From Narcine bancroftii (taxonomy: Eukaryota): a stretch of 64,000 nt of DNA. Location: assembly GCF_036971445.1 (NCBI RefSeq), contig NC_091475.1:189906001-189970000 (forward strand), read 5' to 3'. The translations under genes and the position numbers were made by a program. This document shows positions 29,777 to 37,300 of the stretch, piece after piece (within the stretch, counting starts at the first letter, position 1; every line of letters begins with the position of its first letter). The notes under the pieces are model-generated. The model saw nothing but the letters and a program-made list of their open reading frames with translations. It did not search any database and had not been told where the DNA came from.

Positions 29777-30974
29777 AAGATAGACACATATATATAAAGG
29801 GAATGAAGGGACATGGATCAAGGGCAAGTATTTGAATTTAGTTTGATTTAGACATCATGGTTGGTACAGACATGTGGGCCAAAGGGCCTGTTCTTCTGCT
29901 GTACTATTCTACTTCATACCTAAAATAACTATAATCTTTAACATATTTAAGACATTAACAATGGAACCAATACATCCAAGGGTCTTTGTTCGATGTACAA
30001 AGTTTGCTTTACAGCAACAGTTTTCTCTTTTGACTCTCAATTGGGTTTGCTTGATTGCTTATTTGAAACGAATGCTCCTTCCATTCTCTTGACACAAAAA
30101 AAACTGCAAAAAAAAAGAACCATGTCCAACAAATTGCCTCAATTTGCTTTTTGTGACCATTTGATTTTGAAGATTTAAAACATGATGCTGCTCCTGCTAC
30201 TATTTTCTGGAGGGGCAAAGGTAACCGTTTTGTTTACCACTGTTCTCTTGATCCTATTGTACATGGAAAATGTATACATCACGCTTGAGCTATTTTTGAT
30301 TAATACTCAATGCAGAGAAATCTGTTATCTGTTGAATTGTGGAAACAGGAACAATTCAAAAAAGACAAATTAAGAACATACATTCAGAGTGCAATAACTC
30401 ATAGTGACTGAAGAATGCCACCAGATTTGTTTTCATTTACAAGAAAGCTCTTCACACACAATACCCTAGCAACACCCAAAAGACTCCAAAATGCTTCTAC
30501 AATAAATGCACGACAGGACTATTGTAACTGACCTTGTACACAAAATAGCCTGGGAAAAACACATCTCTGTCAAAGTAACATTTTAAAACAATTTAAACGA
30601 GTGCATTTCCCTCAGAGCTGTGACAAGCATCAAAGTTACTTTTTAAAAAAAAAATTAGCAGACTGGTTTTCTGGCAAGATTCATTTAAACATTTCACCCC
30701 AAAAGGTTTTATTCTTCCTTTGGCTGGCTGAATTTGGTGTCTCTTTTGGTGGGATAGAAGAGAAACAGGCTGCTCTCCTTGTGCAGAATAGAAGCAGGAA
30801 GGAAGTTTACATGTTCAGTCTTCCCTTGCCTGATGGACAATAATGAATGGAATTAATTGCAGTTGAATGGAAGCTTGTTGTCAAGACTGTTCAGTCCCCC
30901 TCAAGGAAGATTCAAGCGAGCAAGTATTCTGGAAGCCAGACATTGTGCAGAAGAAAGAAAATGTATAACCTAAT

Positions 30975-31265
30975 GACACAGTGATGCAACAAGCCTCCGA
31001 TCACCGGAGGCTTGGGTTTGATCCTGACCTCCGGTGCTTTCTCTGGAATTTGCTCCTTTTCCCTGTGACAATCACATTGATTTCTTCCTGAAGCTCTGGT
31101 TTCCTCCTACAACCCAACAACATTTGGGCTGGTAGGTGATGTGAGTTGGAGAGTCTGGGGGAGTTGGTGAGAATGAGGGATAATTTAAAAAAAAAAAGGA
31201 TTGATATAATATGGCTGCCATGAACAGTAGTAAGCCAAAGGGCCTGTTTCCATGCTGTATCTCCC
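30975..31265 (+). mobile_element. V-SINE (HE1-like), degenerate
   Basis: B-box-like gggtttgatcc, core ggtttcctcc, tail gggcctgtttccatgctgtatctc. Confidence 0.7.
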
Positions 31266-31429
31266 TATATTCCTTTGATTCTGTTTCATTTTCTTGTTCA
31301 GTCAAATAATCTGATAAAATAAGACCTTGTTTAGCCTTCTACTAAATACTCAGAATGTTGTGGGATGGGATAGATACATTGATCAGCCCATTTTAACTTG
31401 GAACATTACAGGACAGTACAAGGCCTTCA

Positions 31430-31913
31430 TTTCCCAAGATGTTCACAAATTATATGACCTGATGAGCTCTATTGCCAATTAGACATCCTTCGCCCTTTTG
31501 TCTGTCAGTCAGGGCCTTCATGACCTTAATCACAAGCTCTCTGCTGTCAGGACAGTGGCTTTACAGAATCGTATGGCCCTGGATTTTCTTTTAGCAAAAC
31601 AGGGTGGCACATGTGCTGTTGTCGATTCTGAATATTGCTCGTATGTTCCCGATGTATCCACTAATGTATCTGATATTGTTCAGCATGTTTCAAAATCTGT
31701 TTGTGAGCTTCAGCGTCTGGGTTTGTGGCCCACAAGGATAGTTTGAGCCTTGGTTGGAATCCTTTTTCATGGTTAACTGGTACATTTGGGGGATTGGGCC
31801 ACAATATTCTCCGTTGGTTGATCGCATTATCGCTTATTTTTGTGATTATCATAGTTTTAGTTTCTCTTTTTCGCTCCTTCTGTTCTCAAATGCTTGTAAG
31901 GTCTCGTAAGTGA
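31430..31913 (+). pseudogene. env: Retroviral env TM subunit fragment (gamma-type), frameshifted
   Basis: Immunosuppressive domain LQNRMALDFLLAKQGG, CX6CC-like CAVVDSEYC, then membrane anchor ILRWLIALSLIFVIIIVLVSLF in the next frame. Confidence 0.92.
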
Positions 31914-31925
31914 CAGGCTGCGACC

Positions 31926-31936
31926 AAGGGGTGGAA
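31926..31936 (+). promoter_or_regulatory. Polypurine tract of the ERV
   Basis: AAGGGGTGGAA immediately before LTR start TGTAATGG; typical of the ERV-L/S group. Confidence 0.85.
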
Positions 31937-33821
31937 TGTAATGGAGGATTTAGACCAGCTTATGCAAGAAGGGATGGAGTTGCATCAGAAGACATACAGC
32001 CTTCGGGTGCGGTTTAAACTAATTTGGCAGGGGGGTGGGAACCCGTATGATAGGGCAAAGGACAGAAAAGGTAAAACAGGAAAAGTTAGGTTAGGCAGCA
32101 AAAGTAAAAAATCAGAAAGAGCAAGGAGGGTGAAAAAAGCAAATCTGAAGGCTTTATATCTTAATGCAAGAAGCATTCGGAACAAGGTAGATGAATTAGC
32201 TGTGGAAATTGAGATAAATATGATTTGATTGGGATTACAGAAACATGGCTGCAGGGTGGTCAAGCCTGGGAACTTAACATGTTCACAATTTACATTAATG
32301 ATCTAGATGAGGGATTGGATGTAATATCTCCAAATTTGCAGATGACACTAAGCTAGGAGGGGTTGTGTGCACGGAAGAGGGGGTCAGGAAGCTCCAGTGT
32401 GATTTGGATAAATTGAGGGACTGGGCAGATACATGGCAAATGCACTACAATGTGGATAAATGTGAGGTTATCCACTTTGGTAATGCAAACCGGAGGGCAG
32501 ATTACTATCTGAATGGCAATAGATTAAGAGATGGGGAAGTGCAGAGAGACCTAGGGGTATTTGTACATCAGTCTCTGAAGGCGAGCATGCAGGTACAGGA
32601 GGCGGTTAAAAAGGCAAATGGTATGCTGGCCTTCATATCAAGAGGGTTTGAGTATAGGAACAAGGATACCTTACTGCAGCTGTACAGGGCCTTGGTGAGA
32701 CCCCACCTGGAGTATTGTGTGCAGTTTTGGTCACCTTATCTAAGGAAGGACGTTCTTTCAATGGAGGGAGTGCAGAGGCGATTCACCAGGCTGATACCTG
32801 GAATGGCAGGAATGACTTAGGAGGAAAGATTGCGCAAATTGGGATTGTACTCACTGGAGTTTAGAAGATTGAGAGGGGATCTCATAGAGACCTATAAAAT
32901 TCTGGCAGGACTGGACAGAATGGATGCAGATGGGATGTTTCCAAGGATGGGAAAATCCAGAACCCGGGGCCATGGTTTGAGGATAATAGGCAAACCATTT
33001 AGGACCGAGATGAGGAGGGATTTCTTGACCCAGAGAGTGGTGAATCTGTGGAATTCATTGCCACAGAGGCAGTAGAGGCAGGTTCATTAAATATATTTAA
33101 GAGGGAATTAGATATATTTCTTCAGTATAAGGGTATTAAAGGTTACGGAGAGAAGGCGGGGACGGGGTACTGAACTTTAAGATCAGCCATGATCTCGTTG
33201 AATGGCGGAGCAGGCTCGAAGGGTCGAATGGCCTACTGCTGCTCCTATCTTATATGTTTCTATGTTTCTATCTAATTTCCACCATGAGGCCCAGGATGCA
33301 TATGAATCAGTAGAAATTATCTAATTTCCACCATGAGGCCCAGAGATGCAGTTGTCTTTTGTTGGTCGCAGACTGTCAGGAGACCTTGAAGATAATTAAA
33401 TCATTTATTCAAAGAGATAACCTATGAGTAAACAATTTTTTGGGTAATATAAGCCATGGTCCCACTGCTTAAGTTTGAGACTCTCCAAGAGGTGGCAACA
33501 TCTCTCAGAAAGAAGAAGAAATTTTAGACTCCAACCAATGTCCCGGTCAGGGGAGGTGGAGAAGCTGCTACCGGCGCCCAGACAACCTACTACAAGTGTG
33601 CAATCGTTGCCTCGCTTCGGTAGTTGGGTCCAGTCCAGGCATTGATAAGTATAATTGGAAAGGGCTTGCATATTATAGTTTGAATTCTGCTTTAGATTTA
33701 GTTATAAAGATTTGTATAAACTGAAGTGCTCTCAGTGTGAGTGTCTGTTTTCTTTCGGTAGCTCAAACACTGTGACCAATCTAAAACGAACAAAATGAGA
33801 GGTACAAGTTTACCCAGGACA
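31937..33821 (+). repeat. ERV 3' LTR, split by a CR1 insertion (31937-31995 and about 33268-33821)
   Basis: TGTAATGGAGG..CCCAGGACA; reverse complement of 36015-36576; has an extra ~47-bp internal duplication near 33270-33350. Confidence 0.92.
31996..33271 (+). mobile_element. Young CR1/HER1 LINE with a large internal deletion
   Basis: APE start LYLNARSIRNK..GITETWL joined at about 32281 to RT FTIYINDLDEG..SKFADDTKL; ORFs 32365-32820 and 32830-33075; tail (TATGTTTC)n. Confidence 0.93.
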
Positions 33822-34200
33822 ATTCTGACCCACCACTAGTCCTTTTGTAATAGTCCGAATTCCAAATGCAAATCCCCCTTGGCTAGTATTAAGGGCCGTA
33901 CTGGCCAACATATTGATACCTAGGATACACTCGTCAGTGGCAGCCAGCAGGGCATGTAACCATACATGGGAAGGGCCATCACCCACCGTGGCGCGGACTT
34001 TTATTTCCTTAGCCAGGGTGATCGCTCCTCCCATCCCCTCTATTCGAAATGTTGGTCCAGTCCAGAGGTCGGGGTTACCATGAATCACCGAGTGCTCTGC
34101 ACCAGTATCAACCAAGGCTAAATATTGGTGGTCATTACCCCAACCCCAATGGATTGTTAACGGTGTGTAGGGCCGCGGGTCTCCGTATATCCGCCGTATC
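33822..34200 (-). pseudogene. pro: ERV aspartic protease, ending at the inversion junction
   Basis: DPRPYTPLTIHWGWGNDHQYLALVDTGAEHSVIHGNP..CILGINML. Confidence 0.92.
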
Positions 34201-35984
34201 CCGCCTGCACCCTCATGCCTTAGTAGGGTTCGGGGGCTTCCAGGACCACATGCTACTATTATCCATAAGAGCCTTTTTAACCAATTGTTGTATCTCATCA
34301 CGGGTAACTGGAGCAAGAGAAGCTAGCTCGATAGGAGCAGCAGTGGAAGCAGAAGGCACAGTTGGGCCAGGAAGACTCAACAGCTGGGGATGATGTTCCC
34401 CTGCTTATAAAGGGCATAAAGGATCGTGGTAGGTTTCCCATCAATATCACTTTTAGGTACGCCTAACTTTAAAAAGGTTAGAAAAAGGTCCTTTCTTGTC
34501 GGTCCGTTATTAGCAGCAGGCCCTCTCTTTTCATCTTGCTTGTCTGATTTAACCTGGGTTGTACGTGAGTGGATTTTACCTCCCAACTCTAATTCTCTAA
34601 GCCCAGATAAGGCATGCACCGCCTCAGACACAGGGTGCCCAATTAACGGACTAGTTACGGACAGAACCAGTCCCCGTACAGTGGGTTGGGCGGAACGAAC
34701 CAATCGGGTATGCATTCCGGCCGTGAATATCTCTTCGTCAGGGCTCCCCCCATGTACCCACAGCCTCAAACGCCCTGCATACAAGGCAGAGGCCAGGGCC
34801 AGTTGACGAATTACTGCTATGCCCTCCTCTGGGGTGCCCCAATTGTTCTGCAAATGTAAATCCCAATCTACTGGTGATGGGTATACTCATAACAGAGCAT
34901 CCCCTAGAGTGGCAAGTAAGTAATCCACCCCTCTCCTTCTACCATGTAGCTCAGCAGTGACCCGGATATCAGTAGTCAATGTTCCTAATCCCAACGATTC
35001 CTCAGGGGTTAAATATATATTACTCTCTCCTTGTTCCCAAACACGCAGGAGCCAGGCCGCCAGAGTTTCTCCCGTCTTTTGCCTAAATCGATCTCCAATG
35101 GTGGCCAGCTCTTTTATAGAGAAGTCACGTATCGTTGACTGCTCCCAACCCCTTCCCACTTTGGGCCACAGGGTCCTCTGCCCAGTGGACAGGAGGATGC
35201 CCAAGCCATCCCTTAGATGGGGGGGCATTGAGAACAAGCAGGGGTTCGGGTACCTTCCCCTGAATCCGCTTGGGAGGCCAGGACATCATCTATCCCTTCA
35301 TTCTCTCCATTTACATCATCCCCCCTTCTATCTTTGTTTGTTTGGAAAGTCCACTACCTTACGGGGCAGGTGTGAACAGCGGGTGGAGAGGGGAGTATGT
35401 CAGGCACATGCTGAGGAGTATCTGCATTATTACCATGGTCATCATTCCAGATATTCCCATCCCATTCATCAATTACATCAGGATCGTCGCCATTCCTTAT
35501 CATGGCACGAATACGATGTGGGTCGGGTTCTACCCCTTGCTTTTCCTTACCTGCACAGAGCTGCTGCCGGAGTTTAATATTACGGCAAATTGTTTGGACA
35601 TGCTTATCCTCCCATTCTTTGGCTCGGTCCTGACTGGTGCCAACATTCTCGCTCATCATGGAACAGTGTTGTCACGTGGCTTCTATCTCCTCCTCTAGTT
35701 GCTCTCTCTTGTGCTGGGATTCTACTTCTCGCTGTACAGATTCTGCTTCACGCTGAACAGCGCGGCGTAAGGCTGTGGCCAGCAGCCAAAAACCATCCGT
35801 CAGCGTCCCCATTTTAACAGGAAATTTACTTTCTCGAAGGAGAGTGGCAACCTGCTCTCCCAGAAGTGCACTTGATGGATCTAACCTTTCATCCCAACTA
35901 ATGGGTGGTCAACATGCCAAACCCATCGTCTTTAGAAGTCCATCCGGGAATCAAGAACTGCGCAGGGCTCACCTCAAGAAACAT
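34200..35984 (-). pseudogene. gag: ERV class III gag (MuERV-L/Fv1-like), disrupted
   Basis: RIRAMI..EWDGNIWNDD; FSIKEL..FRQKTGETLAAWLLRVWEQG; WGTPEEGIAVIRQL; SPDEEIFTAGMHTRLVRSA align by eye to recalled ERV-L gag blocks. Confidence 0.88.
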
Positions 35985-35994
35985 CTTGAGACCA

Positions 35995-36012
35995 ATCCTG
36001 CCAACTATACCA
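35995..36012 (-). promoter_or_regulatory. Primer binding site, tRNA-Ser
   Basis: TGGTATAGTTGGCAGGAT 2 nt after the LTR; matches tRNA-Ser PBS TGGCGTAGTCGGCAGGAT apart from CpG transitions. Confidence 0.87.
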
Positions 36013-36014
36013 AT

Positions 36015-36576
36015 TGTCCTGGGTAAACTTGTACCTCTCACTTTGTTCATTTTAGATTCATCACAGTGTTTGAGCTACCGAAAGAAAACAGACATACACA
36101 CCAAGAGCACCTCAGTTTATACAAATCTTTATAACTAAATCTAAAGCTGAATTCAAACTACAATATGCAAACCCTTCCCAATTATACTCATCAACGCCTA
36201 GACTGGTCCCAACTGCCAAAGCGAGGCAATGACCACACACTTGTAGTAGGTTGTCTGGGTGCCGGTAGCAGCTTCTCCACCTCCCCCAACCGGGACGTTG
36301 GTTGGAGTCTAGAAGTTCTTCTTCTTTCTGAGAGATGTTGCCACCTCTTGGAGAGTCTCAAAATTCAGCAGTGGGACCATGGCTTATATTACCCAAAAAT
36401 TGTTTACTCATAGCTTATCTCTTTGAATAAATGATTTAATTATCTTCAAGGTCTCCTGACAGTCTGCGACCAACAAAAGACAACTGCATCTCTGGGCCTC
36501 ATGGTGGAAATTAGATAATGTCTACTGATGCAACTGCATCCCTTCTTGCATAAGCTGGTCTAAATCCTCCATTACA
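36015..36576 (-). repeat. ERV 5' LTR (562 bp)
   Basis: TG..CA termini on minus strand, followed by PBS and gag. Confidence 0.93.
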
Positions 36577-36602
36577 GATAGACACATTGATCAGCCCATT
36601 TT

Positions 36603-36970
36603 AACATGGAACATTACAGGACAGTACAGGGCCTTCAGCCCATGATGTTGTGCTGACCAATGTAAACCAATTCAAAAAATGAAACTTCCTCTACCCCATA
36701 ACTTTCTATTTTTCTTTCATCCATGTGCCTATCTAGGAGTTTTTTTTTAAATGTCCCTTTTATACCAACCTCCACCACCACCCTTGGAAAGACACTCCTG
36801 CCACCCACTACTCTCTGACTACTCTCTGTGGGGGGGAAAAAAAACTTACCCCTGACTTCTCCCCTAAACTTTCCTCACCTCACCTTGCACAGATGTCCTC
36901 TCGTGTTCACTACTCTCACCCTGGGAAGAAGGTGTGGGCTGTCCCCTCTATCTATGCCTCTCATAATCCT
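36603..36970 (-). mobile_element. CR1/HER1 LINE 3' fragment
   Basis: Tail acatggaacattacaggacagtacagggcc; ORF2 end (cccctaaactttcctc, tatctatgcctctcataat). Confidence 0.8.
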
Positions 36971-37070
36971 ACATCTGAACTACTGTGGGTTAAAACAAGC
37001 AGTACCTGCCACCCCCTTCCACAAAGTACAGGTGCAGTTCACAGACTAAAGAACCTATCTAGCTACAGAT

Positions 37071-37300
37071 TGGGGGTGGCATGGTGAGTGTAGCAATTAG
37101 CACAATGCTTTTACAGTGCCAGCGACCCAGGTTCAAATCTGGTGCTGTCTGTAAGGAGTTTGCGCATTCTCCCTGTGTCTCCATCAGTTTTCTCCCCACC
37201 CTCCAAAAAACATGTGCAGTTTGTAGGTTAATTGGTGTATTTGGGCAGCAGAGAGGCTATGGGCTGGAAGGCCTGTTATCGCACTGCATGTCTAAATTTT
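37071..37300 (+). mobile_element. V-SINE (HE1-like)
   Basis: Head gggtggcatggtgagtgtagc, B box caggttcaaatc, tail ggcctgttatcgcactgcatgtct. Confidence 0.82.

Follow-up and report, generated by a model that had tools for sequence, protein, structure and literature searches.

In this study, we analysed a 64,000-nucleotide stretch of the genome of Narcine bancroftii (assembly GCF_036971445.1, contig NC_091475.1, positions 189,906,001 to 189,970,000 of the forward strand), hereafter called the window, which contains a defective endogenous retrovirus (ERV) at 31369-36637. In this insert, env, the polypurine tract (PPT) and a long terminal repeat (LTR) run on the plus strand and are fused to pro, gag, the primer-binding site (PBS) and a second LTR on the minus strand, with the LTR arms inverted and a duplicated 61 bp of host DNA flanking the whole. 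When mapped on the full-length sister copy L082, the plus-strand half runs from env position 7891 to the 3' LTR and the minus-strand half from pro position 3598 to the 5' LTR, and relative to this single sister about 4.3 kb, comprising pol and most of env, is missing. This mapping agrees with a first-pass annotation of the window, made from the letters alone, both in the strand order of the two halves and in the missing genes. The direct LTRs and the 5-bp target site duplication (TSD) of a normal provirus are replaced here by inverted LTRs and a 61-bp direct repeat, whose coordinates and three mismatches that annotation had also given correctly.

From left to right, the insert begins beside the left copy of the host duplication (31369..31429, plus strand), which marks the aberrant, likely host-made end and differs by 3 mismatches from the right copy (36577..36637, plus strand), which runs on into the right host flank. 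A search of the genome with the left 180 bp, including the 61-mer, returned three matches, of which only these two are full 61-mer places. The second half of the 61-mer (31400-31429 and 36608-36660) consists of the tail of a common minus-strand repeat, presumably of a LINE or SINE, and the provirus thus landed next to an older repeat end. The last two bases of the left copy, CA (31428..31429, plus strand), are shared by the host 61-mer and native env according to the sister alignment. Next on the plus strand come the 3' fragment of env with its transmembrane part and the 3' untranslated region (31430..31925), which matches Pfam TLV_coat (E 2.8e-8) and is 92-95% identical to 39 other places in the genome, and the PPT with an AA spacer ahead of U3 (31926..31936), found at the equivalent place in sister copies. 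The 3' LTR (31937..33821, plus strand, TG...CA by alignment) is interrupted within U3 by a later insertion of 1.27 kb (31996..33268, plus strand), a LINE-like 3' fragment of high copy number with very high summed Logan contig depth, which had no match in a Pfam search and which we take to be CR1-like. Comparison of the LTRs showed an additional 49-bp U3 repeat unit (33269..33317, plus strand) not found in the 5' LTR; like the LINE-like insert that splits the plus-strand LTR, it was absent from the first-pass annotation. Beyond the inversion junction ATT (33822..33824, plus strand) lie the leader, gag and pro on the minus strand (33825..35994), delimited by alignment and domain search, which carry stops and frameshifts and finish at the end of pro; the match of pro to Pfam RVP was weak and below the cut-off (E 0.0014). 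The PBS (35995..36012, minus strand), recognised from its sequence, is presumably tRNA-Ser-like, and the alignments place a 5' LTR of 562 bp after it (36015..36576, minus strand), whose U3 end forms a clean, likely integrase-made junction. Six long open reading frames elsewhere in the window had no match in the Pfam search.

The element belongs to an ERV family in which the order LTR-PBS-gag-pro-pol-env-PPT-LTR, reverse transcriptase (RT), RNase H, integrase and env are all found, and which has at least 2,459 exact U5-end matches in the 3.3-Gb genome. In the sister copy L081, RVT_1 and rve scored above the cut-off and RNase H was weak. The family may be class III (spuma/ERV-L/S-like) by its gag motif and PBS type; the RT scores do not separate the classes, as a 160-aa RT piece gave near-equal values against murine leukaemia virus (MLV; 31.9 bits) and foamy virus (31.4 bits). 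The family TSD is 5 bp, as seen in four of six normal LTR pairs and in 66 of 76 solo LTRs outside the class of U5 ends followed by ATT.

At the inner junction, the first-pass annotation held that the U5 terminus CA (33820-33821) joins pro directly, which was not borne out, as ATT (33822-33824) sits between them. When the place corresponding to 33822 was compared in other family copies, a check that the same annotation had suggested, AAT was found in pro in none of the 19 (17 read GCTAAG, one GCTAAA and one ACTAAG), while the sequence after CA in 24 of 25 other 5' LTRs is ATTGG, in which AT precedes the PBS. Since ATT is foreign to pro and equals the spacer between LTR and PBS, the junction keeps an unprocessed U5 end, made up of the terminal dinucleotide AT and the first base of the PBS. 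The annotation had mentioned this match and, with it, a template switch as an alternative, which is the better reading and recurs in sister elements. In HIV, according to the part of PMC5618025 that deals with this step, RNase H leaves the last ribonucleotide of the transfer RNA at the U5 end, and by analogy the same leftover may be present in the Narcine family. At the outer junctions, the U3 end of the 5' LTR joins the right 61-mer exactly at TG (36576/36577), confirming the clean contact with host DNA described earlier. The opposite end indeed lies within env, as had been claimed for position 31430; its alignment to L082 begins at 31428, giving a 2-bp CA overlap with the left 61-mer, and sister copies have CA (16 of 24), TA (7) or CG (1) at this place.

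U5 ends of the family were classed by the bases after CA, starting from locus L066, and 297 pattern loci were read of the more than 2,459. For its patterns the ATT set covers nearly every locus, and the non-AT controls comprise the 77 ends that come first on a single contig, out of about 1,900. From the 113 ATT loci, we removed 10 that are no LTRs and 27 that are 5' LTRs followed by a PBS, which left 76. Inverted viral DNA followed the U5 end in 5 of these 76, the window included, in 2 of 48 ends where AT is followed by a base other than T, and in none of 77 non-AT ends, the nested locus L288 being set aside. In the ATT class, with the window excluded, 7 of 75 ends show an inverted join or a long duplication; the non-AT class shows none in 76 (p=0.006). 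Solo LTRs without a 5-bp TSD were likewise more frequent with CA-ATT (17 of 35) than among the others (10 of 76; p=1e-4), in a test that omits the ends without a located U3 start (15 ATT and 58 others).

Three of these 17 solo LTRs lie in long host duplications, of 103 bp (L096), 101 bp (L166) and 139/128 bp (L179), all ending exactly at the U3 TG, and the provirus L380 shows a 511-bp host duplication beside CA-ATT. The 61-mer in the window has its direct counterparts in these four. When 16 ATT-ended 3' LTRs were traced 10 kb upstream, four had a 5-bp TSD and one the 511-bp duplication, and 11 were without a matching TSD or without a 5' LTR within that distance.

In a second group of nine loci, the LTRs are inverted such that each terminus is an outward-facing U3, and the TSD is 5 bp long; it is perfect in seven (L112, L203, L204, L206, L207, L208 and L303/L388) and has one mismatch in two (L079 and L302). 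With the four long-duplication loci, the aberrant relatives elsewhere in the genome number 13. In seven of the nine two-U3-end elements, CA-AT, -ATT or -ATTG is fused to inverted viral DNA, the inner join falling in gag (L079 and L302), in pol (L203), in U3 (L204), just beyond the PBS (L303) or at the PPT/U3 boundary (L112 and L206), the last three with an overlap of 3-4 bases. Their interiors and breakpoints differ, so they represent separate events, and the normal TSD at two U3 ends implies that integrase acted after the inverted join existed; the nine were likely inserted normally by the viral integrase. The nearest relative of the insert in the window is L204, a near-complete provirus with a perfect 5-bp TSD in which env-PPT-LTR-ATT, with its unprocessed U5 end, is fused to an inverted U3 piece. 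In L208, which has a perfect TSD, a complete 5S rRNA copy (Rfam RF00001, 110.6 bits; 6204-6322, G000:C17:84.68 Mb) stands between a forward and an inverted PPT, suggesting capture of a host RNA by RT; its U5 CA is fused to a native gag ATT with contiguous breakpoints at 2381/2382, and it is possibly a true autointegration. Plus-strand synthesis must begin strand displacement at the PPT; the breakpoints at the PPT and the 5S rRNA at the PPT of L208 point to an origin of the two-U3-end class in reverse transcription. In L112, gag is fused to env at 5884-5888 where both have about 7 bases in common, likely an RT copy-choice deletion.

Searching for a PPT running into an inverted U5 gave 41 matches, of which 30 loci were read, with L206 among the 11 others; only L238 (the same as L112) was real, 28 being host flanks and one not an LTR. 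Tandem U5-U3 junctions, as in 2-LTR circles, were found in none of the family loci collected. Other candidates for an inverted join were rejected: L091 consists of a tail-to-tail pair of LTRs with 319 bp between them, L288 is an LTR that sits inside another and has a TSD of its own, L115/L116 are separate LTRs, and L209 is a plain deletion, in which pol is fused to the last U5 bases and the TSD is normal.

We interpret the insert in the window, with a probability of about 0.75, as a one-ended integration fossilised in the germ line, the U3 end alone having been inserted by integrase while the U5 end stayed untrimmed. One end stops exactly at the LTR terminal TG, the other is truncated with 2 bp of homology, and a 61-bp duplication adjoins the good end; one-ended integration is supported because of the clean U3 junction, the env microhomology and the four sister duplications of 101-511 bp. 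A plus strand ending in pro would have been connected to the blunt, unprocessed U5 end by a strand switch or by end joining, thereby inverting env-PPT-LTR, removing pol and leaving the DNA with a single usable attachment (att) end. Integrase would then insert that U3 end, a host polymerase would extend the env end into the neighbouring host DNA, and recombination would close the join, duplicating 61 bp; the LINE would have entered the 3' LTR afterwards. Sister elements with two U3 ends and an unprocessed-U5 join make it likely that inverted joins predate integration, and for the window itself we put an inversion made before integration, as in these sisters, at slightly short of even odds, whereas an inversion made during the host repair is a possibility that we hold for rather unlikely.

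Both halves of the insert more likely come from a single element than from different provirus copies, the latter being an outcome that the first-pass annotation had named as counting against its reading. The window LTRs have two rare alleles in common, one of which was seen in these two of the 116 rows alone, and two or more rare alleles are shared by only 70 of 6670 row pairs (about 1%). The best matches of pro and env both include the full-length copies at C9 226.6 Mb and C24 73.86 Mb. The divergence between the two LTRs (32/504 in the contiguous stretch) lies within the range of six normal pairs (3.4-6.2%), and comparison with the 61-mer, another check that had been suggested, showed no difference at low power (3/61 against 32/504, or against 34/562 over the LTRs, Fisher p=1.0).

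Several results weigh against the interpretation of the insert as a one-ended integration of one element. Inverted joins alone, with the window excluded, occur in 4 of 75 ATT ends against 0 of 76 non-AT ends (p=0.058), and inverted joins at a precise CA could exist among the unread non-AT ends. The 511-bp duplication of L380 has ATT as its own first bases, and a processed end is therefore possible there. The inner join of the window has no microhomology, unlike those of L112, L206 and L303. With three mismatches in 61 bp, the age of the duplication is poorly constrained (95% interval 1-14%). The LTR tree (63 of 116 rows) is star-like and places both window LTRs in a single poorly separated set, with the two as sisters in 20% of bootstrap trees, and each is closer in identity to other LTRs than to its partner; several normal pairs are likewise not sisters in this tree. 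The two LTRs also differ by one U3 unit (49 bp), a kind of length difference that is found within normal pairs too (for example 614/544). Lastly, among Logan contigs from four runs over 30900-37200, no listed piece crosses either junction, the search being swamped by the repeat family, and the listed pieces include no empty-site joint either, a result that is uninformative for the same reason.

Misassembly of two copies is a conceivable source of such a structure, since the genome holds at least 2,459 LTR ends and the junctions are without a bridging Logan piece. We regard it as the most improbable of the explanations, because the duplication is diverged and lies in unique flanks, the junctions fall at biologically meaningful bases, the LTRs share rare alleles, 13 sister cases exist, and Logan contigs cover both unique flanks with 0 differences. 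A further proposal starts from a normal provirus, flanked by a 5-bp TSD, that multi-step template switching of the host later rearranged, producing the inversion, the deletion and the 61-bp duplication. If a jump ran between the two copies of the 5-bp TSD, the duplication would begin right at the LTR end, and the available portion of PMC5488345 discusses pseudo-TSDs from later recombination; nevertheless, a TSD and not ATT is expected after a normal 3' LTR, so that an extra LTR-to-LTR switch would be needed, for which the U5 parts, being no more alike than the U3 parts (0, 3, 10, 10 and 9 mismatches per 100 columns), give no sign. Such rearrangement also cannot yield 5-bp TSDs at the two U3 ends of nine sisters, and we consider it improbable, though the least so among the rivals.

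Autointegration, in which integrase would have used the U5 end against the opposite viral strand, within pro, and the U3 end against the host, formed one part of the mechanism given in the first-pass annotation. The topology suits an attack on the opposite strand, and the joins of CA to the gag ATT in L208 (2381/2382) and of CA to forward gag in L325 may be integrase-like internal joins within the family. In the portion of PMC2644782 that treats the reaction, however, it joins a processed CA, whereas the insert in the window keeps three bases foreign to pro, the mark of an unprocessed end that also occurs in seven sister joins, so that autointegration is largely refuted and appears quite improbable, while the other part of the earlier mechanism, a one-ended integration with a host-made duplication, is upheld. 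More doubtful still is that a longer two-U3-end molecule, with the full genome and an inverted 5' part, integrated normally, its left arm being later deleted and the repair making the 61-bp copy. Long inverted arms are unstable, and L204 shows that such a near-complete structure exists with a perfect 5-bp TSD; even so, a second event is required, the 61-mer and the LTRs appear to be of similar age, and the long duplications without inversion in L096, L166, L179 and L380 point to the integration step.

One-ended integration as read in the window has counterparts in the literature. Its geometry matches the model set out in the sections of Varadarajan et al. 2016 (PMC5041404) on aberrant one-ended integration of HIV-1 and avian sarcoma-leukosis virus (ASLV) in culture, where one end is a normal integrase end and the other, truncated, is fused to viral DNA that may run either way, with a long host duplication and short homology. 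The insert in the window differs from these cases in being natural and inherited, without a drug or an engineered end, in a bad end that can be read as unprocessed U5, and in its recurrence across an ERV family. Passages of Kahyo et al. 2017 (PMC5488345) report long TSDs of 13-450 bp, one of them 61 bp, at HERV-K (HML-2), where an ERV or solo LTR likewise lies in a long duplication, in one case with two extra bases between the LTR and the duplication; no integrase mechanism appears in these main-text passages, while the Narcine duplications accompany a CA-ATT that has been kept and lie against U3 in every case. Passages of PMC3625200 (HERV-K124) and PMC5210030 (a guppy foamy-like ERV) describe single ERVs in which LTR parts are inverted, with the mechanism there unresolved or unstated, in contrast to the nine Narcine elements with normal TSDs and seven like inner junctions. 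Inversion circles from autointegration resemble the insert in joining an LTR end to internal viral DNA on the opposite strand; in the relevant portions of PMC2644782 and PMC7197481 these joins follow a processed CA and the circles are dead ends, whereas the window join keeps the unprocessed end and its product is integrated. Our literature search found neither a recurrent two-U3-end class nor unprocessed U5 as a cause of long ERV TSDs, a weak negative with the older primary papers outside its reach. The insert in the window is likely a natural case of the known one-ended integration, and the new part is the family-wide link to unprocessed U5 together with the two-U3-end class.

Other irregularities were seen in the family. 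Common env deletions (reference 6232-6798 and about 7048-8127) occur in L206, L208, L378-L383 and L113, pointing to a deleted subfamily that may have gone on spreading. A like LTR flank recurs at several places in L172-L175 (G000:C8:316.8-318.7 Mb), L266-L267 and L070-L071, which are segmental duplications carrying the provirus. L325 has an internal deletion in which CA is followed directly by forward gag. In L114 (2816-4717, G000:C1:31.07 Mb), about ten R-U5-PBS-leader fragments of 100-250 bp, on the minus and then the plus strand, form a cluster that looks like a concatemer of short reverse transcripts.

One-ended integration, known from drug-treated or mutant HIV/ASLV in culture, is here read from inherited DNA, with its cause, a U5 end left untrimmed, visible in the junction. 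For the long TSDs of HERV-K this offers a direct sequence test, namely whether terminal bases are retained and which LTR end borders the duplication. Judging from the nine elements with two U3 ends, integrase may be able to use a pair of U3 ends in vivo, and fold-back joins may arise ahead of integration. In a wider proposal, to which we give an even chance, a plus strand ending in CA-AT, -ATT or -ATTG would recurrently fold onto a different plus-strand 3' end, in many cases one halted at the PPT, to form linear DNA with two U3 att ends that is inserted normally; the products would be inherited proviruses with convergent LTR promoters, sources of antisense and double-stranded RNA, and failure of U5 processing would explain long ERV target duplications in general, including those of HERV-K. 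LTR finders that require direct repeats miss the two-U3-end elements, and the inward-facing promoters of these elements could feed a putative small-RNA silencing of the family.

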